Source of the DNA: Escherichia phage F2
DNA length: 64,000 bases
Direction: 5' to 3' (one strand)
Sequence record: NC_054913.1
The position numbers and the translations under genes were made by a program. Below, piece after piece: positions 636-62,897 of the stretch; position 1 is the stretch's first letter, and each line of letters begins with the position of its first letter. Below the pieces are notes generated by a model. That model was not told the origin of the DNA. It made no database searches and was given only the letters and a program-made list of their open reading frames with translations.

Positions 636-1628
636 ATGTTACCTGTCATCAGAAAACTTATTTCTCCAAAAGAACTGGCTGAGATTATTCCTTTGTCGGA
701 AGCTTACGCATCACAAGTGGCTTCTCATCGCGAACAAGTTAATTCGATTATGAACGGTGAAGACCCACGCAAACTTATTGTTGTAGGTCCTTGTTCAATT
801 CATGACCCTATTGCTGCTGTTGAATACGGCAAACGTCTGGCTGAACTTCAAACTCGTCTTCCTAATGTTCTGTTAGTGATGCGCGTTTATTTTGAAAAGC
901 CTCGAACTACCGTAGGTTGGAAAGGTCTTGTAAATGATCCATATCTTGACGGAAGTTTTGATATGAACCACGGTCTTATAGTTGCACGAACATTGTGTCG
1001 TAAACTTCTACGTATGGGACTTCCATTAGCAACTGAAGTATTAGACCCATTCACGATTAAGTATCTTTCTGGTATTTTCTCATGGGTTGCTATTGGCGCC
1101 CGTACGACTGAAAGTCAGACACATCGTGAAATTGCTTCAGGTCTACCGATGTGCGTAGGCTTCAAGAACGCAACCAATGGTTCTATTAAAGTAGCTACAG
1201 ACGCGATGTATAGTGCCGCCTGGCCTCATCGGTATATGGGTATGGACGTCGATGGTACTGTAGGCATTGTTGAAGCTGAAGGTAATCAGAATACGCATAT
1301 CGTATTGCGTGGCGGGACCAACGGCCCGAACTATCATTCTTCTGATATTCAAGAAGCTTCTAACAAAGCAAGGGCAGTAGGTCTGAATCATTATGTAATG
1401 GTTGACTGTAGCCATGCAAACGCTGATGGTCATTATAGCAATCAAATTGGTATTGGTAAAAATTTAGCAGCTAATGATTTGGTCAAAGGAATTATGATAG
1501 AATCATTCCTACATGAAGGAAATCAAAAAATTTCTGATAATATGTCCTATGGCGTTTCCGTTACCGATGCGTGCATCAGTTGGGAACAAACTAAAGAGCT
1601 GTTAACTTATATTAATAAGGTTCAATAA
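636..1628 (+). CDS. 3-deoxy-D-arabino-heptulosonate-7-phosphate (DAHP) synthase, class I (AroG/F/H-like)
   Basis: 330 aa; blocks LIVVGPCSIHDP, MRVYFEKPRTTVGWKGL, IGARTTESQTHRE, GFKN, HIVLRGG, GIMIESFLHEGNQ match class I DAHP synthases; stop overlaps cd start (TAATG). Confidence 0.9.
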   Translation: MLPVIRKLISPKELAEIIPLSEAYASQVASHREQVNSIMNGEDPRKLIVVGPCSIHDPIAAVEYGKRLAELQTRLPNVLLVMRVYFEKPRTTVGWKGLVNDPYLDGSFDMNHGLIVARTLCRKLLRMGLPLATEVLDPFTIKYLSGIFSWVAIGARTTESQTHREIASGLPMCVGFKNATNGSIKVATDAMYSAAWPHRYMGMDVDGTVGIVEAEGNQNTHIVLRGGTNGPNYHSSDIQEASNKARAVGLNHYVMVDCSHANADGHYSNQIGIGKNLAANDLVKGIMIESFLHEGNQKISDNMSYGVSVTDACISWEQTKELLTYINKVQ

Positions 1629-22304: not shown

Positions 22305-23147
22305 ATGGCTTTTACAGTTGATATAACTCCTAAAACACCTACTGGAGTTATAGATGAGACTAAGCAGTTTACTGCTACTCCCAGTGGTGAAACTGGAGGT
22401 GGAACTATTACCTATGCATGGAGTGTAGACGGTGCTCCTCAAGTAGGATCGGCAGAAACTTTTGATTATATGTTAAAAGGACCTGCTGGAACAAAAACAA
22501 TTAAAGTTGTTGCAACAAATACTATTCCTGATACTGAAGCTGAAACAGCAGAAATTACTACGACTATCACGGTTAATAAGAAGACAATGAATCCACAGGT
22601 TACATTGACTCCTCCTTCTATTAACGTTCATCAAGATGCTTCGGCTACATTTACTGCTAATGTAACCGATGCTCCTGAAGAAGCGCAAATCGAATATTCA
22701 TGGAAGAAAGATTCTTCTCCTGTAGAAGGGTCAACTAATGTATATACCGTTGATACTTCATCTGTTGGAAGTCAAACTATTGAAGTTACTGCAACTATTA
22801 CTGCAACTGATTACGATAGCAAAACTATTACAGCAGAAGGTCAAGTTCAAGTGACTGATAAAGTTGCTCAAGAACCAGAAGGTGAATTACCTTATGTTCA
22901 TCCTCTTCCACATCGTACTTCAGCTTATATCTGGTGCGGTTGGTGGGTTATGGATGAAATCCAAAAAATGACTGAAGAAGGTAAAGATTGGAAAACTGAC
23001 GACCCAGATAGTAAATATTACCTGCATCGTTACACCCTTCAGAAGATGATACAAGATTATCCAGAAGTTGATGTTCAAGAATCACGTAATGGATACATCA
23101 TCCATAAAACTGCTTTAGAAACTGGTATCATCTATACCTATCCATAA
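22305..23147 (+). CDS. hoc: Hoc-like highly immunogenic outer capsid protein
   Basis: 280 aa; two Ig-like T/V-rich repeats plus a conserved C-terminal capsid-binding module; T4 Hoc is 376 aa. Confidence 0.7.
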   Translation: MAFTVDITPKTPTGVIDETKQFTATPSGETGGGTITYAWSVDGAPQVGSAETFDYMLKGPAGTKTIKVVATNTIPDTEAETAEITTTITVNKKTMNPQVTLTPPSINVHQDASATFTANVTDAPEEAQIEYSWKKDSSPVEGSTNVYTVDTSSVGSQTIEVTATITATDYDSKTITAEGQVQVTDKVAQEPEGELPYVHPLPHRTSAYIWCGWWVMDEIQKMTEEGKDWKTDDPDSKYYLHRYTLQKMIQDYPEVDVQESRNGYIIHKTALETGIIYTYP

Positions 23148-24817: not shown

Positions 24818-24846
24818 GAAAAAGGGACCGTAAGGTCCCTTTGTTT
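24818..24846. terminator. bidirectional terminator between rnlB and gene 24
   Basis: AAAGGGACC-GTAA-GGTCCCTTT flanked by A and T runs. Confidence 0.6.
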
Positions 24847-26129
24847 TATTCATCAATAATAATTTTTGGTAGCTTAACACCTAATAAAACAGACAAATCT
24901 GAACGTCCTGCCATTTTATCCATGTCCCCACCATCAATTACTCTCGCTTCTTTTTCATCTTTTGCTACTGTGTAAGGATTCGCAGATAAAGCATATCTAA
25001 CCAATAATCCGATAGATGGTTGCAAGCTTTCTGGATCAACTACGACTTTAAATGCACCGACATGTTCCGGGTCATCTAAATCTACTCCTTCAGTGTATGG
25101 AGCATAAAAGATGGACCCCACAATTTCTTTTTCGCCGATATTTTCTACAACACCCACAATAACATAATCTAACGGACTGTTGGTATCGCAGTAAAGAGGT
25201 AATCCATTTGCCAAGAATCCATAAGCATTTTGTGAAAGATACTTGTCATCTTCTGGCTTATGTTTTAACCAACCAGAAGCAGCAAGAATAGCAGCTGCAC
25301 GAGCTGAGGCTACACAAAACGTTGCAGTATAAGTTGTCTCTTTTTGAATGTGTGATACCATTTCACACACCATTCGATATAATGAACGACCTGCTTCTGG
25401 AGCGGATGCATAGCTCAAGTCAATAAATCCGGTGTCAGTAATTCCAGTAACTTTATAACGTTTCGATACAGTAATTAAAGACTGAAGAATATCTTTATTA
25501 ATTTCATCAGCCATTTCAGTAGCAAGCAAATCTTCTAAGAAGTTAGGGGCATCAAATCCATTCGCTTCCAAATCTTGCGCTAATTCAACCGTGAGGCCAG
25601 TTTTAAGTTTACGAGATTTGACTGAAGTTTGCCATTTATTAATCTGGAATCTTGCATCAGAAATTTCGCTATCAGAGCTTTCAAATTTGCTTGTTACCGC
25701 TGCATCTGAAAATAACCGTACCTTTAAATGAACGACTGCAATCTGAAGAGCTAATTCTAGATCACTTTCTTGAATATCTGCAAATGGTGTATCTTCTAAC
25801 ACTTTATAGACGATATTATTATATTTGAAAAAATCGCCTTTATTTAGTGTGACTTTTGATTCTTCTGTGAGCTCAGTAATTTTTTCTCGGTCTACATATC
25901 CAACTTCACCAGCATAAGTAGCACCAGTTTTAAATGTGAATTCGTTATCTGGGTTAAGATATTTGATACCATAAAAAGCAGCAACAGGTTGATTAGTTCT
26001 TTGTGTTGCTACAATGTCAGAATATATTAATTTAGTCGTAGCGCGAGTCAAAGCAACGAGATTTGGGCGACCGATTGAGTTGCTAGTAGACGTTGTAGAT
26101 TCACGCAATAATTTTTGGATTTTACTCAT
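24846..26129 (-). CDS. 24: head vertex protein gp24
   Basis: 427 aa as T4 gp24; gp23 paralogue. Confidence 0.85.
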   Translation of the reverse strand: MSKIQKLLRESTTSTSNSIGRPNLVALTRATTKLIYSDIVATQRTNQPVAAFYGIKYLNPDNEFTFKTGATYAGEVGYVDREKITELTEESKVTLNKGDFFKYNNIVYKVLEDTPFADIQESDLELALQIAVVHLKVRLFSDAAVTSKFESSDSEISDARFQINKWQTSVKSRKLKTGLTVELAQDLEANGFDAPNFLEDLLATEMADEINKDILQSLITVSKRYKVTGITDTGFIDLSYASAPEAGRSLYRMVCEMVSHIQKETTYTATFCVASARAAAILAASGWLKHKPEDDKYLSQNAYGFLANGLPLYCDTNSPLDYVIVGVVENIGEKEIVGSIFYAPYTEGVDLDDPEHVGAFKVVVDPESLQPSIGLLVRYALSANPYTVAKDEKEARVIDGGDMDKMAGRSDLSVLLGVKLPKIIIDE

Positions 26130-26502: not shown

Positions 26503-27162
26503 ATGAATTATTTAATTTACAAAATAACCAATCTCATTAATAACAAGATTTATATTGGAGCCCATGCCACTACAGATGTTAACGATTCTTATATGGGTTC
26601 CGGGGTTAACATAGTAAAATCCATAAAGAAATACGGCTTAGAGAATTTTAAAAAGGAAATCCTTTTCAATTTCGAAACATCTGAAGAGATGTATGCTAAG
26701 GAAGCCGAACTAGTTGACGAGGCTTTTGTCATGAGAACAGATACTTATAATGCCGCCTTAGGCGGCAAGGGTAATCCTGTTATAGTAGCTTTACAGGAAC
26801 CTGGGTATCGTGAGATGTTATCCGAAAAGACAAAAGCTGGTATGACTGAAGAAGTTCGGGCCAAAATATCTAAAAAGAAATTAGGTTCTAAAGAATCTAA
26901 AGAACATCGAGAAAACAAATCTATATCAAATAAAAAGTTTTATAAAAATAGAGATTCTCATCTTAAAGGTAGAAAACTATCAGAAGAGCATAAAGCAAAA
27001 ATTAGAAAGAATTCTAATAAAGGTAAGAAATTTGTATTTGTGGATATTTCTATTAAAGGTCATGAATTTAACCACTACGATTACGCTGCCGAATTCTTTA
27101 ACGTATCCGCAAAAACTATAAGAAATTGGATTAATGAACGCGATGATTGTTTTAAGCTATAG
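26503..27162 (+). CDS. GIY-YIG homing endonuclease (segD-like position)
   Basis: N-terminal YLIYKITN...IYIGAH GIY-YIG motif with downstream E and N residues; T4 has segD between genes 23 and 24. Confidence 0.75.
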   Translation: MNYLIYKITNLINNKIYIGAHATTDVNDSYMGSGVNIVKSIKKYGLENFKKEILFNFETSEEMYAKEAELVDEAFVMRTDTYNAALGGKGNPVIVALQEPGYREMLSEKTKAGMTEEVRAKISKKKLGSKESKEHRENKSISNKKFYKNRDSHLKGRKLSEEHKAKIRKNSNKGKKFVFVDISIKGHEFNHYDYAAEFFNVSAKTIRNWINERDDCFKL

Positions 27163-27219: not shown

Positions 27220-28788
27220 TTAAATTCCTTTAACGTAGACGCGTCTAAAGTAAGCGTTCTTACCAAGGCTGTTCAGGATAGACGGCATACCGGACTGGAT
27301 GCGAGCACCTGGAGCCTGCAGGGAACTTTCAGCAAACGGGTTAACACCGATACCGTAACGAGTTTTAAAGCCCATTACTGGCTGGAAGTTCTTAGGATCG
27401 GAACCACGTAGTGGGGTAAGTGCAACGTAAGGAGCATAGTAAATACCTGCATCCATTTCGTTAGCGCCTTTGTAACCAACGGTGAAGTAATCCTGTTTAG
27501 CATACTGGTCGATGTATACTCGGTATTTACCACCAAGTACACCGGCAAATACAGATTTAGTAGTGTCGGTATTAAAACCAGAAGCCAGACCCTGTGCAGC
27601 ATAAGAAATACCAGTATCAACTGAAGCCAGTACGTTAACTACGTTACGGGAAGCGATAATGAAGTTACCTTCACCACGACCGGTTTGACGAGCAATTTCA
27701 ACTGCTTCTTTATCAATCTGGAACAACAGAGCTTTAAAGCTTTCACCGGCCCAACGAGCACCACGGATATCAATCGGGTCCTGGAAGTCAAATACACCAG
27801 CTTTAGAACCAACGATATTAGTCATACCAGATTTACCAACCTGAGCGGAGTAGTTAATCCAGTCAACAACTTCACGGTTGATTTCCAGCATAATTTCAGT
27901 GGCAAGAATACCGCTCAGTTCAGCATCAGCATCCATACCGTGTACTGCACGGAGGTCTTGTGCCAATTCGATGGAGTAAGCTGCTTTCAGCTGACGAGAT
28001 TTAGCTTCAATAACTTGTTTGTCGATACGGAAGCCCATTTCGTTCCACGGGTTGTCGGTAGAACCATTGAAGCCTTCCTGAAGTTCAGCGATAGAAGTAG
28101 CCATACCTTCAGCGATTTCTACCAGTACACCAGCTTCCATTTGTTTCTTAATTTCAGCATCCAGTTTAGTTGCATCGGTAGCGCCAGCATCGATTGTTAC
28201 TACAGCGGAAGCTTGTAGATACACAGTACCAGTTTCCTGGAAGAAGTGAGTATAGATATCACCTACAACGGTTTGTGTGCTAGCAGCCAGAGCTGGGAAT
28301 TTCTTAGCAGCACCCTGACCAGAGAACATCGCGTCTGGAGCATACATCGGATGGAAAGCTTCTTTAGCGTCAGCAGCGATAGGGTCTTTACCATATACTG
28401 CACGGAGAGCAAATACCTGACCGGTAGGGCTGTTCATAGGCTGAACACCACAAATATCGAAAGCGATCAGATTAGGAATAGCACGACGAACCATACCCAT
28501 AACTGCCGGCCCAATCTGGGTTACTGCACCAGAGGTTTGACCTGCTGCGATGTTCTGAGCATTATAACCATGGTCGCCACCAATTTCAGCTTCGGTCAAG
28601 AAAGAACCAAATGCCTGAGCGATTTTCTCGTCTTTATATTCAGGGGATACTTCGAAATCTTTTTCCTGGTTTTCGAAGATTTTAGCGATAATAGCCTGCT
28701 TGCTATTAGCGATTTCCGGCAGGCCTTCACCTTCCAGCAGTTCTTTCCATTTGTCTACGAGCTGAGCTTTAGTTTTGATAGTAGTCAT
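27220..28788 (-). CDS. 23: major capsid protein gp23
   Basis: 522 aa; near-collinear with T4 gp23 from recall (GEGLPEIANSKQAIIAKIFENQEKDF ... AFGSFLTEAEIGGDHGYNA). Confidence 0.95.
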   Translation of the reverse strand: MTTIKTKAQLVDKWKELLEGEGLPEIANSKQAIIAKIFENQEKDFEVSPEYKDEKIAQAFGSFLTEAEIGGDHGYNAQNIAAGQTSGAVTQIGPAVMGMVRRAIPNLIAFDICGVQPMNSPTGQVFALRAVYGKDPIAADAKEAFHPMYAPDAMFSGQGAAKKFPALAASTQTVVGDIYTHFFQETGTVYLQASAVVTIDAGATDATKLDAEIKKQMEAGVLVEIAEGMATSIAELQEGFNGSTDNPWNEMGFRIDKQVIEAKSRQLKAAYSIELAQDLRAVHGMDADAELSGILATEIMLEINREVVDWINYSAQVGKSGMTNIVGSKAGVFDFQDPIDIRGARWAGESFKALLFQIDKEAVEIARQTGRGEGNFIIASRNVVNVLASVDTGISYAAQGLASGFNTDTTKSVFAGVLGGKYRVYIDQYAKQDYFTVGYKGANEMDAGIYYAPYVALTPLRGSDPKNFQPVMGFKTRYGIGVNPFAESSLQAPGARIQSGMPSILNSLGKNAYFRRVYVKGI

Positions 28789-38424: not shown

Positions 38425-39189
38425 TTAATTCATAAACCCATCGTCAAATGGTGAATTTTGTCTACCACGGTTGTTAACTACTACATACGGCTCAACGTAT
38501 TCACTTGCCTCTGAATTGATTTGCTCAACTTCAGAATATTCATCGATATTAATGTCATGGATACCGTCAAGATTTCTAACAGGGTTAAGTTCCAAGTCAC
38601 TAAATTCAGGTATATTGATACCTTCATTTTTCTGAAGCACCGGATTGATTTCTTCGCCAGAGTAAATAAACTTGCCTGCAGTAATTTTACGAATCGCATT
38701 TTTACCTACTTGATAGAATGGGTCATATGGTTCAACCCAGTTAATCTCAAACAAACTGTTATCCATTGGGAAGTATATTAAATCACCTTCCTTGGGCTCC
38801 TGATTGTTGACCTGGTGTTTGAAAAGACCTGGGTTAATAGATAATGTAACTTCGTCTTGAACTTGCATTCCGAAGTTGCTGAAGAACGATTTCGCTCCTT
38901 CATAACCTTCAAAAGAGTTCAGATATGCAGCAAATTTCCATGCTTTAGTAAATTTATTTTTAAGGTCCTCACCAAAGATAAGGTCCACGGCAACATATTC
39001 ACGTGGAACATAAAAACATTCAATACCGCGCATCTGTATGCTTTCTGCTACTAACACATCAGCTAGGGTTTGACTATTTTCGTATTTGTTGAAGTTCACG
39101 TATTTGTTTAAAATCTCGGTTTCATTAGTTTTAGAATAGCCTTCTCGGTTTTCTAACTTTGCAAATAAATTTGAATTATACGTCGACAT
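38425..39189 (-). CDS. 14: neck protein gp14
   Basis: 254 aa versus T4 256; synteny. Confidence 0.8.
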
Positions 39190-39811
39190 AATTCCATCCT
39201 GCCCATTTAGGTTTGTTGTTTTTGCATCGGCCTATAACCGCGCTTGATGTGATATTAAATTCTTCACCACATTCTTTGCAGGTGTTAAATATTTTACCAT
39301 TTACACTAACTTTTCGAGCTGCTGGATTTTTTGAACCAGAAAAATCAGGATGTCTATGTTTGAAATCTTTCCACATTCTTGCTGTAGATTCTTTACGTTT
39401 TCTTAACCCTTCTTCAGTCCATTTTCTTGATTTTGCGGCGTCAGACATTTTCTTTTTAGATTGGGCTGAACGTTTTTGTCCTATAGATGGATTATCTTCT
39501 GGGTTAATATACGACCTTCCGCCTGCACCACCTTTAACAAGATTTGCGCAATTTTCTAAAATGGATAATTCATCTACCAGTAACTCTTCAGCTTCATCCA
39601 TTAGAGCTTTAGATTCAAATGGCTTAGACCATATAATTTCTTTTATACAAGACGGACCGTATTTTCTTTTGGCCCTTCGTATAAAGGTACCAGACCCAGT
39701 ATAAGGGTCTTTTGAAGGGTCTTCGTAAACTGATTTGTGTTTACCACCATAAATCTTTATACCGGTGGATGTTTCAAATGTTGTAATATACAATCTGTAG
39801 TATGTTGCCAT
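39176..39811 (-). CDS. GIY-YIG homing endonuclease inserted between genes 13 and 14
   Basis: [28 protein letters not shown] motif, downstream R, E, N; NUMOD-like basic repeat; C-terminal CKECGEEF Zn finger. Confidence 0.65.
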
Positions 39812-39812
39812 A

Positions 39813-40739
39813 TTAACCTACCAAAATACCTGCAGGAGGGTCCAGTAAATATAACTCTTCTCGTAAAGCTTCTTTCTCTAAACGAGCTTCTTCAATTAAT
39901 CGAACACCATCAACAGTGACGCCACCAGGTAACATCATACCTTGATGTCTAGCAAGAATTTGTCCGTTAAGCTCTTTAGCTAATGCAGTTGCATAATCTT
40001 TAACCCAGCGGTTGTTATATGCGCCTTGTTTAGTTGCAGGATCTTCACCAACTCGACGTCCGACCAAATTATGGTCTGGATTATCATAACGTTCAGAAAT
40101 AGACCATGAATCACGAGGACCGACCTGTCCGTACCCTACTGTATTTCCTACCATCTTATGGGTCTCGATATAAGAGCGAACATACGATTCAACGATAATG
40201 ACATCTTTCTGTCTAAAGTTACCCATTACTTTTAATTGCTCGTTTGCAGAGTTAAACCAAAAATCTGGAAGAGGAGCAATCATATCTTGAAGCATACCCA
40301 TATAAGATACTAATTGAGAATAATACCCGAGGTCAGCGCCAAAAGCGTTCGGACCGTAGAATTTACCACAATTACTACCCATACCACCTGAAACACCTGC
40401 CATTCCTAAAAGGAAATCAGTGAACCATGGATAAGTTGCATTACCATCCATTGAAGTAATAGAGCCAACATTTGTTCTTATAATTCTTGTTACAGCAAAT
40501 ACGTTAGAACCGCGCATATCAAATACGCCGTGACGGTATTTTTCTTCGTCATCAACAAAAAATACATGGAAACCTTTATTCAACCCGTCAAAATGGTATT
40601 CGCCATAAAGTTCTAACGCTCGTGAAATACAATCATAAATTTGGTCTGTAGTTAATTCAACATTTACAATAGGAGCGCCTAAACGACGTAATATTACGTC
40701 CTTTAATTCTTTAGGGTTTTGTGCATTATAACCTGACAT
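39813..40739 (-). CDS. 13: neck protein gp13
   Basis: 308 aa versus T4 309. Confidence 0.8.
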
Positions 40740-53578: not shown

Positions 53579-54094
53579 TCACGGCCTCACATAAACATAG
53601 TTTCGTAATTGTTGAGCCCATTTGCTCCAATTTCCTACTATAGTTTTTGTATAAACCTTAGTAAGAGTTTTTTGTACTGGAGCCGGTGGAGGTTCTGTAC
53701 CAGAGTCACTTCTAGAACCGCCTGATGAACTTTCTTCTTGGTAGTTATAAATCATTTCAACCGTATAACTAAACACTTTACGAAGATTCTGAGGAGCTCT
53801 CCACAAATATAACTGTGTGGATTCATCTTTTGGTAAATCATCCCATGAAGATGCGGTTTCAAAATCATCATTTAATCGGTATTTCAATGCATCCGAAGAA
53901 AAGCTAAACACACTTTCATATGTTCCATATAAACGATTACCATCTACCGTAATGCCTTGTGTCGGTTCATAATCTGTTATATTTATTGACACTAAAGTTT
54001 CGGTTGTTTCTAACTGTGGAGTAAAAAGGACGTCAATAGACGCCCCTTCCATGTCTTCTCCTAAGTCGGTATTTAAAGGAAGTATATTAGCCAA
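53579..54094 (-). CDS. hypothetical protein (gene 5.x position)
   Basis: 171-aa ORF between the seg-like gene and 5.4. Confidence 0.5.
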
Positions 54095-54950
54095 TTACTG
54101 AATTCTCCAATGGTGTAAATTTATAATCACATTTTTTCAATGCTTTTAAAATTGCGTTATAACTTACATCCGGTAGATTATGTTCAATTGCTTTTTCTCT
54201 AAACCATTTATATTTCTGCGGATGAGGTTTTCCCAAATCCTCCCAAAGTTTTTTGACTTTTTCAATACTAATCCAAGGTTCAACTGATCTTAGTTTTTTA
54301 TTTCTAGTATCTAATCTTGATTTTCTTATTAAAGGATTATTCCAGGATTTTTTCGTTCCTTCTATTTTTCCTGGATGATTAATTAATTTGTTTCTATATT
54401 CATCGGATTTCCATAAAGATTTGACAGTATTAGAAATACGAATTTTTAATGTGGGATCATTTTCAAAAGCAGTTTTCATCGCATTACTCATTTTCTTTCG
54501 ATATTCCGATTCCGAACATCTAAGTTTATTAATTTTTGAAATTTTTTCTGAAAATTCTTTTGTAGATTTTCCTTTTGCCAAAGCTTTAAGTTGAGTTTCT
54601 CGATACTCAGGATTAGACCACATTCGTTTTAAATCGTTTGAAGAAAATCCATCTCCACCGTCTTTTATATTAACACACTGGCCTGTTTTTCTATATTCAG
54701 ATATCCAAAATTTTTCTCTTTCATTTAAAACATCGAGTGTTGAAACGAATTCGATAATTTCGAAATCTATAGCATAGCCTGGTTTGTTTTTAATCTTTTG
54801 TATATAATCCCCGCTTCCTACGTAATTATCATCCTCTAGATTAAAATATCTGGATTCATGCTTTCCTATATATATTCGAACCAACCCCTTTGGGTTGGTT
54901 ACTGTTGATTTATAAATGTAACGGAATTGTATGGTTTTGGATTTCTTCAT
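54087..54950 (-). CDS. GIY-YIG homing endonuclease (segC-like position)
   Basis: FRYIYKSTVTNPKGLVRIYIGKH GIY-YIG motif; C-terminal Lys/Arg-rich NUMOD-like repeats. Confidence 0.7.
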   Translation of the reverse strand: MKKSKTIQFRYIYKSTVTNPKGLVRIYIGKHESRYFNLEDDNYVGSGDYIQKIKNKPGYAIDFEIIEFVSTLDVLNEREKFWISEYRKTGQCVNIKDGGDGFSSNDLKRMWSNPEYRETQLKALAKGKSTKEFSEKISKINKLRCSESEYRKKMSNAMKTAFENDPTLKIRISNTVKSLWKSDEYRNKLINHPGKIEGTKKSWNNPLIRKSRLDTRNKKLRSVEPWISIEKVKKLWEDLGKPHPQKYKWFREKAIEHNLPDVSYNAILKALKKCDYKFTPLENSVIG

Positions 54951-54965
54951 AATTTACCTCTGAAT

Positions 54966-54973
54966 TATTTATA
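54966..54973 (-). promoter_or_regulatory. late promoter for the seg-like gene
   Basis: TATTTATA on + 16 bp before the seg start, inside the gene 5 3' end. Confidence 0.45.
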
Positions 54974-56705
54974 ACCCGACATCCACACGGCTACCATCAA
55001 TTGTGTATTGACCAGATGAAATAGAACTCATAGATGCCATTGTTTCTGCCCAATCCCCGGCAACAGTCATATCAACATTACCATTAACAGTCCATTTAAC
55101 GTTTCCGTTGACGGTGTAATCATGATTCCCTTCGACCTGAGTTTTAGCATCACCTTTAACAAGAATATCTGCATTTCCGTCAACAACTATTTTGATATTA
55201 CCCTTAACGTAAAGAGTTCCATCGCCTTCAACAGTTTTAGATTGGTTACCGCGAATAAAGATTGTGTCATTGCCATCTATTTGATGGAGGCGGTCTGCCA
55301 TGTTATAATATATTTCATTAGCACCAACGTTAACAAGCTTATCGCCAGAAATCAAGAAGTTCCCATCACCATTAGTGATGTCAAAAAGGTCTTCTACAGT
55401 TTTACGAGTACGACGCCCAGACGGAGAAACTTCCTCATATGACCCTGTTGGATGAACTAAGCGATAACGTTCATTACCTGGAGTATCGTCAAATTCTTGG
55501 ATATGGCCGCTTTCTGTTTCCATAGCATGAACGTATGGATACTCACCACGATAACTTGATTCCGGTTCTTTAAAAAGGATACGTGAATCTAATGGAACAG
55601 GAGGACCAGCCGGGTCTTCTGGATCGGTATTTCTAGTAACTAAATCGGCACCAACTCCTGGTGAAGGCGGTGTTTTAACAGGAACGCCATATGATTCCAT
55701 GTTACCAGTTAAAATAATTGTTGTTACACGTGAAGCACGCCCTTTAGTCTGTTGGAACCATAACGAATCGCGTCCAGATTTGTATGCAGTTTTCCAATCA
55801 CCTGTGGCCATTGCTTTAAGCATAGTATTGAATTTTGCTACACCACCAACGCCCATCTGGAAGCACATGTTTTCTAATGCCATTTGGCGAGATCTGTTCA
55901 TTTTAGCATAAACAGGACCTACTTTAGAATTAGAACGAATGTCTTTTTGCATCTTAGCAAGGTCCTTCTCAAATAACGCTGTTGCTTCTTCTAATGTAAT
56001 AGTTCCCGGATTTCCTGTTACTTCACGCCCTACTTGATCAGATAACAATTTATTAATTCGAGACATATCTCGGGTTTTTTCCATTACTATAAGGTGTCCA
56101 ATACCTACTGTAGGATATCCGAGATGGTCCCAATACACTTTATCACGAAGACCTTCGTCACGACGTAACATTTCTGTTATTGTAAAATTAGGGTCATCAT
56201 CTTCTGGAATATTTGCTAAATCTGTATCGTCTGGGTTTATACCATAATCCAAGTTGTTATCTTGAATTACGTTAGAGTTTGAATAATAACCAGCTTCGCC
56301 GCCTTGGTTTAATACGTTCGTATCATTACCTAAACGTCGCGGATACTGGCCTGTCGGGTCTGAAAAACCTTCAAGTCTATTAGGCTTTTCACGTACTATT
56401 CCGCCATATGTACCAAGTACAATCCCGTTTGTTTTCCATTTGTCTAAAAAATGACCATATACTCGAGTTCCTTCAACAGGACCTGTAACAGAACCACCAA
56501 TACCTGACATTGATGCAGACGTAATAGGTTGAATAACAGTCATCCATGGAAGTTTTTCTGTAGGAATACCTTGTACATCACCTTGTGTTCTCTGCGCCGG
56601 ATGAAGACCAACGACTCGAACTCGAACTCGCCCTTGTTTTAATGGGTCCATTCTATCCTCGACAACACCCACGAACCAATTAAGGCTACTGCTAATCATT
56701 TCCAT
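54969..56705 (-). CDS. 5: baseplate central spike and tail lysozyme gp5
   Basis: 578 aa versus T4 575; lysozyme block DEGLRDKVYWDHLGYPTVGIGHL; C-terminal beta-helix VxGxxxxx repeats. Confidence 0.9.
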   Translation of the reverse strand: MEMISSSLNWFVGVVEDRMDPLKQGRVRVRVVGLHPAQRTQGDVQGIPTEKLPWMTVIQPITSASMSGIGGSVTGPVEGTRVYGHFLDKWKTNGIVLGTYGGIVREKPNRLEGFSDPTGQYPRRLGNDTNVLNQGGEAGYYSNSNVIQDNNLDYGINPDDTDLANIPEDDDPNFTITEMLRRDEGLRDKVYWDHLGYPTVGIGHLIVMEKTRDMSRINKLLSDQVGREVTGNPGTITLEEATALFEKDLAKMQKDIRSNSKVGPVYAKMNRSRQMALENMCFQMGVGGVAKFNTMLKAMATGDWKTAYKSGRDSLWFQQTKGRASRVTTIILTGNMESYGVPVKTPPSPGVGADLVTRNTDPEDPAGPPVPLDSRILFKEPESSYRGEYPYVHAMETESGHIQEFDDTPGNERYRLVHPTGSYEEVSPSGRRTRKTVEDLFDITNGDGNFLISGDKLVNVGANEIYYNMADRLHQIDGNDTIFIRGNQSKTVEGDGTLYVKGNIKIVVDGNADILVKGDAKTQVEGNHDYTVNGNVKWTVNGNVDMTVAGDWAETMASMSSISSGQYTIDGSRVDVGL

Positions 56706-62751: not shown

Positions 62752-62823
62752 TGGTGCATCGTATAAAGGTTATTACGGGGAGCTGTTAACTCCTTTATCT
62801 TGGTTCGAGTCCAAGTGCGCCAG
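62752..62823 (+). tRNA. tRNA-Asn (GUU anticodon), putative
   Basis: manual fold: acceptor TGGTGCA/TGCGCCA with one G-U pair, anticodon loop CTGTTAA, T arm CTTGG-TTCGAGT-CCAAG; D stem has one mismatch. Confidence 0.55.
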
Positions 62824-62887: not shown

Positions 62888-62897
62888 ATAATTGGTA

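Follow-up and report, generated by a model that had tools for sequence, protein, structure and literature searches.

A SegC-like gene, probably a functional homing endonuclease gene, takes the start of gene 14 at the neck gene 13/14 junction of Escherichia phage F2

In T4, neck genes 13 and 14 are separated by a single nucleotide, and T4 has no gene between the two, as the original prediction stated. What, then, is the 211-aa open reading frame (ORF) that stands between them in Escherichia phage F2 (sequence record NC_054913.1)—a structural gene of the neck, a homing endonuclease gene still at work, the remains of one, or a protein turned to some other use—and how is gene 14 started when that ORF lies in front of it? 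That T-even late operons harbour free-standing Seg endonucleases has been known since the 1990s. We examined the junction within a 64,000-nucleotide stretch of the F2 sequence (here called the window), which comes from a Mosigvirus 99.7% identical to phage JQD51. Three genes make up the locus:

39176..39811, minus strand: endonuclease ORF of 211 aa, with its ATG at 39809-39811 and its TAA at 39176-39178 (from the ORF list and a reading of the sequence)
39813..40739, minus strand: gene 13 (neck / head-tail adaptor Ad2), 308 aa (PHROG 211, E 7e-43)
38425..39189, minus strand: gene 14 (neck / head closure Hc2), 254 aa (Pfam T4_neck-protein, E 2e-127; PHROG 679)

Gene 13, annotated as gp13 in relatives, stops with a TAA at 39813-39815, leaving nucleotide 39812 as the sole spacer before the endonuclease ATG, which begins at the second nucleotide past that stop. 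The gene 14 ATG occupies 39187-39189, and the 14 nucleotides 39176..39189 are common to the 3′ end of the endonuclease ORF and the start of gene 14. Extent, upstream spacing and downstream overlap had all been proposed beforehand and are seen in the sequence as described. Genes 13 and 14 are separate genes and neighbours in relatives, placing the endonuclease between conserved genes, and an Rfam search of the window found no RNA family, group I introns included, around the ORF. Elsewhere in the window, comparison with phage moskry revealed three further endonuclease-like inserts.

Whether the ORF belongs to the neck module is answered by close relatives. A 622-bp insert is present in 11 of about 150 close Mosigvirus records and missing from about 140, and the insert-free records match the window in two pieces, spanning 1693 bp against 2315 bp. 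Alignment with insert-free NRG-P0074 and F27 leaves a clean 622-bp gap, and in the annotation of both phages one nucleotide separates gene 13 from gene 14; gene 13 stop, one nucleotide, gene 14 ATG is the arrangement of insert-free Mosigvirus genomes and of T4. The alignment with relatives lacking the insert, which had been put forward as a check, thus uncovers a precise empty site in some 140 close records and in T4. Insert status differs even inside the species Mosigvirus mar005p1, where moskry carries the insert and mar005P1 and mar007P3 do not, and the ORF is intact in every one of the 11 Mosigvirus copies.

Tight spacing and a position within the neck operon are what one would expect of a conserved neck-module gene with a structural or assembly role, and the spacing might equally be that of a chance ORF. 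Against this, the ORF is absent from about 93% of close relatives as well as from T4, and it is homologous to homing endonucleases only, leaving either reading with virtually no probability. A structural neck gene, the alternative that the original prediction had itself raised, is refuted by the insert-free relatives: because some 140 close records and T4 do without the insert, the ORF is no conserved structural gene and is an optional insert.

The protein itself has a two-domain layout with a basic linker:

39527..39811, minus strand: N-terminal GIY-YIG nuclease domain, approximately aa 1-95
39443..39499, minus strand: NUMOD3-like motif in the basic linker, aa 105-123 (Pfam PF07460, 16.9 bits, sub-threshold against a cut-off of 20.4 bits)
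39188..39343, minus strand: C-terminal I-TevI-type DNA-binding domain, aa 157-208 (Pfam PF20987, E 1e-4; 22.6 bits for this protein alone, sub-threshold against a cut-off of 27 bits)

Its family membership is supported by several comparisons. It matches PHROG 314 ‘homing endonuclease’ (E 2.6e-37) and is 100% identical to an annotated ‘homing endonuclease’ of phage SQ17; in several GenBank records the identical protein is labelled ‘homing endonuclease’ or ‘GIY-YIG endonuclease’. T4 SegC aligns with it at 33% identity over 198 aa (BLASTP, E 2e-16), and hhalign places it against I-TevI over the full length with 95% probability (E 3.6e-8). Neither Pfam GIY-YIG (PF01541) nor SegE_GIY-YIG (PF19835) matched, whether the whole protein was searched at E ≤ 0.1 or the N-terminal 100 aa at E ≤ 10, and Foldseek with the predicted model returned no GIY-YIG match. 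T4 SegC and Phi1 SegC both pass the PF19835 cut-off; the Pfam models miss the window protein because its N-terminal hairpin is longer and more divergent than that of T4 SegC. With this qualification, the protein is assigned to the GIY-YIG class from comparisons of fold and profile and from its homology to T4 SegC.

In the nuclease domain, a beta-hairpin (aa 4-27), a helix (42-51), a strand (56-61) and a second helix (68-82) form a three-stranded sheet with flanking helices, as in the N-terminal domain of I-TevI and UvrC. The class-defining motifs are degenerate, reading RLY...IYGG (R-L-Y8 ... I-Y21-G-G), and the conserved residues of the domain are Y8, Y21, G23, D35-x-Y37-x-G39-S40-G41, K50, Y51, E75 and N90. 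Four of these—Y8, Y21, E75 and N90—align to Y6, Y17, E75 and N90 of I-TevI; Y21 is invariant across 21 sequences including I-TevI (as Y17), as are the metal-binding glutamate E75 and the asparagine N90, and Y8 is invariant in the close family.

The catalytic arginine is another matter. Helix alpha1 of I-TevI, which bears R27 and H31, lies opposite a gap or loop at aa 28-41 in hhalign and MAFFT alignments, and this loop carries the Seg signature D35-x-Y37-x-G39-S40-G41. No arginine is invariant: R25, nearly so among close family members, is replaced by H in the window protein, and relatives have N or K in place of R46. These departures, together with the missing direct Pfam GIY-YIG match, would suit a dead or decaying endonuclease. 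T4 SegC, however, which Table 1 of PMC2988022 lists among active endonucleases, equally lacks the canonical arginine helix, bears the same signature and has the same H-K after YxG (GVHKT). Since a demonstrated endonuclease dispenses with the helix too, its absence does not refute activity; the lack of a canonical arginine appears, on these alignments, to be a property of the Seg subgroup and no sign of inactivity. The proposal that the R25H change inactivates the window protein was rejected, given that T4 SegC has the same H-K at that place. The original prediction had named absence of the catalytic Arg/Glu as refuting; the glutamate (E75) is there, and the canonical arginine helix is missing here as in T4 SegC.

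The remainder of the protein resembles the DNA-binding part of I-TevI. Across the family, 14 of 15 members match NUMOD3 (PF07460) at E ≤ 1 (best 3.8e-4), and PF20987 is matched by 13 of 15 (best 1.6e-10); in the window protein this second match spans aa 159-204 and contains a helix-turn-helix at aa 178-197. A family profile aligns with PDB 1I3J, the I-TevI DNA-binding domain (E 5.8e-6, chain residues 37-111), covering the minor-groove helix and the helix-turn-helix and starting past the I-TevI zinc finger. The top Foldseek match of the model is likewise 1i3j_A, and a single-sequence phmmer search against the PDB gave a marginal match confined to the DNA-binding domain. A C-terminal zinc finger, claimed at the outset, does not survive this comparison: the last 35 aa hold three cysteines (C178, C181 and C198), only C181 being conserved in the family, the CxxC...CxxC pattern of a four-cysteine finger was not found in the window protein, and the cysteine-bearing segment is predicted to form two helices. 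The segment taken for a zinc finger aligns to the I-TevI helix-turn-helix and is itself a helix-turn-helix.

Two characterised T4 enzymes frame this gene. Like T4 SegC, it encodes a Seg-type GIY-YIG protein with D-x-Y-x-G-S-G ... K-K-Y-G, NUMOD3 and an I-TevI-like helix-turn-helix, and like segC it forms a promoterless cassette, overlapping the neighbouring genes of a late structural operon (PMC2988022). It differs in site, T4 segC lying between genes 5.1 and 5.3/5.4, and presumably in target as well; T4 segC, moreover, overlaps its upstream gene by 20 bp, whereas the window gene takes the start of the gene downstream, and the window protein has the longer and more divergent N-terminal hairpin. 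I-TevI is encoded in the td intron of T4 and has a zinc finger and helix alpha1 with R27/H31, whereas the window endonuclease lies outside any intron, has no zinc finger and carries a loop in place of the helix.

How gene 14 keeps a start can be read from three elements of the junction:

39800..39811, minus strand: captured start ATG GCA ACA TAC (M-A-T-Y), corresponding to codons 1-4 of gene 14 in insert-free Mosigvirus and in T4
39194..39200, minus strand: replacement Shine-Dalgarno AGGATGG for gene 14, within endonuclease codons
39139..39189, minus strand: recoded 5′ end of gene 14 (nt 1-51), where insert-carrying and insert-free genomes diverge

In insert-free Mosigvirus genomes and in T4 the start of gene 14 reads ...GGTAGGTTAAT ATG GCA/T ACT TAT GAT AAA AAT CTT TT..., and in the window this upstream sequence leads into ATG GCA ACA TAC TAC AGA TTG (M-A-T-Y-Y-R-L-Y). 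Upstream of the start, insert-carrying and insert-free genomes are identical, and the 3′ end of gene 13 holds a GGTAGG ribosome-binding region that is gene 14’s in insert-free phages and the endonuclease’s here. The endonuclease ORF begins, in other words, at the ribosome site, the ATG and the first four codons that belong to gene 14 where the insert is absent. Its description as inserted between genes 13 and 14 was right as to position and a simplification as to structure, since the endonuclease took gene 14’s own start.

Gene 14 is restarted from within the cassette. AGGATGG falls in the codons for a conserved C-terminal motif, K-W-x-x-W-x-Y (here K-W-x-x-W-N-Y), of which K202, W203, W206 and Y208 are invariant or nearly so in the family, and the new gene 14 ATG (39187..39189) sits in the endonuclease N-Y-V codons. 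The restart reads ...AGGATGGAATT ATG TCG ACG TAT AAT TCA AAT TTA TTT GCA AAG TTA GAA AAC CGA GAA GGC. Over about 50 nt after this ATG there are 16 differences from the insert-free allele, with eight synonymous codon changes, and beyond that the alleles are identical. When seven insert-carrying and six insert-free genomes are compared, the two groups diverge by 0.30 over nt 1-51 of gene 14 and by 0.02-0.04 in adjoining segments, and eight differences at 39142-39168 are fixed between the two groups. Because the new N-terminus, MSTYNSN, resembles the MSTYNCS of gene 14 beside the closest orthologue (P0002), and because of this pattern of divergence, the recoded stretch is most readily understood as flanking donor sequence brought in by the cassette. 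We regard this start-capture anatomy as a modest new detail. It also bears on decay: with the gene 14 Shine-Dalgarno and start embedded in the ORF, a dead endonuclease might be kept for their sake, and only a precise deletion that restored a gene 14 start would be viable.

The same junction is occupied in other genera. Searches with tblastn and contig look-ups located orthologues, 53-64% identical, at the 13/14 junction in Gaprivervirus (RZ, VR26 and SP18, the last a Shigella phage, GQ981382, with the gene annotated segC), Slopekvirus (phT4A, ALF_ER54 and others), Dhakavirus (vB_EcoM_005) and Krischvirus (G5211), and in two unclassified T4-like contigs; an IMG/VR scan for more loci returned only three, one of them additional. 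The gene is sporadic within a genus, being carried by 9 of 33 close records for Gaprivervirus and by 16 of about 114 for Slopekvirus. At every family locus examined, the 3′ end of the endonuclease gene and the start of gene 14 have 8 or 14 nt in common. The left junction varies with genus: the captured MATY start is found in Mosigvirus and Gaprivervirus (insert-carrying VR26 matches the gene 14 start of VR7 at 12 of 12 nucleotides), Slopekvirus copies have their own Shine-Dalgarno with a 9-nt spacer and at most the first two codons in common, and the Krischvirus G5211 copy starts within an intergenic hairpin of RB49. Clustering at 50% reduces the close family to a single representative within a superfamily of thousands of Seg-like proteins.

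The finding is already known in kind and in annotation, about ten sequenced phages having been annotated. The label segC is also used in Gaprivervirus RZ and VR26, and orthologues at the 13/14 junction had been called segC by about 2010 (Phi1, SP18). Phi1 ‘segC’ (phi1p149.1), from a Krischvirus, is again a Seg-type GIY-YIG gene at this junction with an 8-nt overlap of gene 14; RB49, a sister phage, lacks it, and it has been noted as specific to Phi1 (Arbiol et al. 2010, PMC2839356). It differs in being only 27% identical to the window protein, a different Seg lineage, and in bringing along 66 nt of upstream sequence that contain a promoter-like element and a hairpin.

The window gene, for its part, looks promoterless, because the late-promoter consensus TATAAATA is missing from the minus strand between 39176 and 47169 and because sigma-70-like matches, in common with terminator-like ones, are at or below shuffle expectation. 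RNA hairpins that would sequester the endonuclease or gene 14 starts are unsupported, with z-scores of about 0. The gene would be transcribed late, within a wac-13-14 message from upstream late promoters, and the endonuclease would be translated by coupling to gene 13, a promoterless and translationally coupled pattern known for segC, segF, segG and several mob genes (PMC2988022).

A gene held within an essential late operon, and co-translated with it, might also have been co-opted, its product serving as a DNA-binding regulator of the neck genes or as a nuclease that purely excludes competing phages, in an insert that does not home; I-TevI, after all, also acts as a transcriptional autorepressor (PMC2988022). 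Set against this, no recognisable operator or promoter adjoins the gene, its sporadic distribution in every genus (7-27% of records) is unlike that of a beneficial fixed function, and shutting out competitors amounts in practice to the homing mechanism. We consider co-option very improbable.

Selection and diversity bear on the alternative of decay and on the age of the insertion. With dN/dS at 0.04 for RZ vs VR26 and 0.10 for phT4A vs ALF, codon comparisons show the orthologues in sister genera to be under purifying selection. Seven Mosigvirus copies differ from one another at only eight sites, and five of these polymorphisms are synonymous. Nucleotide diversity in the seven insert-carrying genomes is 0.004 in the insert, about fivefold below that of adjoining DNA (0.019-0.023 for the gene 13 3′ half, 0.018 for nt 52-400 of gene 14), a contrast that comes from only seven insert-carrying and six insert-free genomes of a group, the T-even phages, whose genomes recombine heavily everywhere. 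At both 39049-39070 and 39937-39968 the two haplotypes occur in insert-carrying and insert-free genomes alike, and the only sequence common to all insert-carrying genomes and absent from the others extends from about 39803 to 39142.

Low diversity in the insert and mosaic flanks point to recent spread of the cassette into different backgrounds, and the claim of a recent invasion fits the difference between the insert and the adjoining gene halves; general T-even recombination could contribute to the pattern. Because the flanks are mosaic, the further suggestion that the 13/14 junction may be a recombination hotspot appears plausible. For decay the balance is unfavourable: the ORF is intact in all 11 Mosigvirus copies, Y8, Y21, E75 and N90 are invariant, sister-genus orthologues have the low dN/dS just given, the H25-K26 pair and the absent helix recur in active T4 SegC, and an insert less diverse than its flanks speaks for recent movement. 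A dead or decaying endonuclease is, on this evidence, unlikely.

We are thus fairly confident that the ORF is a functional, promoterless, free-standing T-even ‘Seg’ homing endonuclease gene of the SegC-like kind—a real but ordinary selfish gene. Apart from its zinc finger, the original interpretation holds up. In a mixed infection the protein of this gene would cut both strands of the insert-free allele carried by a co-infecting phage, and repair from the insert-carrying genome would copy the cassette in (intronless homing). Promoterless cassettes, translational coupling and co-conversion are described for Seg endonucleases (PMC2988022). A search of the searchable literature found no experimental work on the 13/14-junction endonuclease or its orthologues.

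The flanks also suggest where such a protein might cut. DNA between break and insert must co-convert, yet no donor haplotype common to insert-carrying genomes extends beyond about 100-150 bp on either side; the recognition and cleavage site would therefore probably lie no more than about 100-150 bp from the insertion point, and the likeliest place is across the gene 13 stop and the gene 14 start. Free-standing endonucleases typically cut hundreds to thousands of bp from their insertion point (PMC2988022), so that the predicted distance is more like that of intron-encoded than of free-standing enzymes.

Immunity of insert-carrying genomes would then come from a site that the insert splits and whose right half is recoded. 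Recoding of the gene 14 5′ end as a general mechanism of immunity is weakened by alleles from two other genera: in Slopekvirus, gene 14 of ALF (insert-carrying) and KLB27 (insert-free) is identical after codon 3, and the Dhakavirus insert-carrying allele equals the Mosigvirus insert-free allele in its LFAKLEN codons. Because of these alleles, recoding alone cannot account for immunity, and a site split by the insert would be the more economical idea. The only nucleotide block conserved in empty sites across genera is the stretch coding for LFA(K/R/Q)LE. That cleavage falls near the insertion point, at a site spanning the gene 13 stop and gene 14 start that the insert splits, has in our estimate something approaching an even chance of being right. 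More tentatively still, the 13/14 Seg family may be an ‘intron-like’ endonuclease whose site spans the insertion point and whose portable cassette takes the gene 14 start and supplies a replacement Shine-Dalgarno, ATG and 5′ coding end, a proposal that could well prove mistaken.

For T4-like phages, the cassette shows how a selfish gene can sit harmlessly in a translationally coupled essential operon, by taking the downstream start and supplying a new one, and the new gene 14 start comes from the cassette’s own conserved C-terminal codons. If the intron-like proposal is true, the 13/14 cassette would be hard to lose and able to move between at least five T4-like genera. For a free-standing endonuclease, the predicted cleavage site would lie at an unusually short distance from the insertion point, and T4 has a matching empty site. 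For phage-therapy genomics, the 13/14 junction would mark recombination between co-infecting Mosigviruses.

Measured against moskry, a Mosigvirus that also has the endonuclease between genes 13 and 14, the window carries further putative mobile nuclease genes. At the gene 24/23 position, approximately 660 nt are extra in the window, and this segment contains an open reading frame with Seg-type GIY-YIG motifs, lying antisense to both flanking genes:

24846..26129, minus strand: gene 24
26503..27162, plus strand: Seg-type GIY-YIG ORF, 219 aa, with motifs MNYLIYKITNLINNKIYIGAH...DSYMGSG...KKYG
27220..28788, minus strand: gene 23

Its score against Pfam family PF19835 (23.1 bits) fell slightly under the cut-off, and the slot it occupies is that of segD in T4. 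Seg-like motifs recur between genes 5 and 5.1, within an insert of approximately 870 nt that is missing from moskry:

53579..54094: gene 5.1
54087..54950, minus strand: ORF with Seg-like motifs, 287 aa (IYIGKH...DNYVGSG...EREKFWISE...NIKDGGDG)
54969..56705: gene 5

A Pfam search with this 287-aa sequence returned no match.

An ORF of a different type, also absent from moskry, sits in the tRNA cluster, where its final 15 nt overlap the tRNA-Arg gene:

62752..62823: tRNA-Asn
62892..63563, plus strand: ORF, 223 aa, NUMOD3-like linker, DUF559/Vsr-like nuclease domain at the C-terminus
63549..63624: tRNA-Arg

The domain was recognised by Pfam family PF04480 at 21.3 bits, which exceeds the cut-off. 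Of the 165 phage records that matched, just 10 hold a full-length copy, under the name ‘hypothetical protein’. This ORF may be a non-GIY-YIG homing endonuclease residing within the tRNA cluster, a type of slot like that of T4 segB.

Two further genes deserve mention. The hoc-like PKD-domain gene (window ~22570-22590) is approximately 560 nt shorter than in moskry, a repeat-number difference in a head decoration gene. The counterpart of a moskry gene annotated as phospho-2-dehydro-3-deoxyheptonate aldolase (DAHP synthase) adjoins the dCMP deaminase gene and is an auxiliary metabolic gene that is not known from T4:

636..1628, plus strand: DAHP synthase-like ORF, 330 aa

In the GenBank record of vB_EcoM_JQD51 (PV204681.1), product names are displaced by one gene: ‘endonuclease’, for example, stands against gene 13, ‘head closure protein’ against the endonuclease and ‘tail sheath’ against the large terminase. 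One database copy identical to the window protein (39176..39811) goes under the name ‘hypothetical protein ABH225_001158 [Shigella flexneri]’ and lies on a 90-kb contig, probably phage DNA inside a bacterial assembly.

Other phages show varied arrangements at the 13/14 junction. Upstream of the endonuclease in the Dhakavirus Escherichia phage vB_EcoM_005 (MK295203; ~1360-1506 of the extracted locus), 99 nt of the original 5′ end of gene 14 survive as a remnant, and next to them comes a second, 48-nt copy of the 3′ end of gene 13: an apparent footprint of imprecise invasion, in a record whose assembly quality is uncertain because genes 13 and 14 are split into fragments. The Krischviruses Phi1 and G5211, compared with RB49, which has no endonuclease at this junction, carry two unrelated Seg lineages there (27% and 56% identical to the window protein, respectively). 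The Phi1 copy is accompanied by a 66-nt upstream element (1435-1500 of locus L008), with a sigma-70-like sequence (TTGACT-N18-TATGAT) and a hairpin, and recalls the mobile promoter/stem-loop cassettes that have been reported from Phi1/RB49 (PMC2839356).
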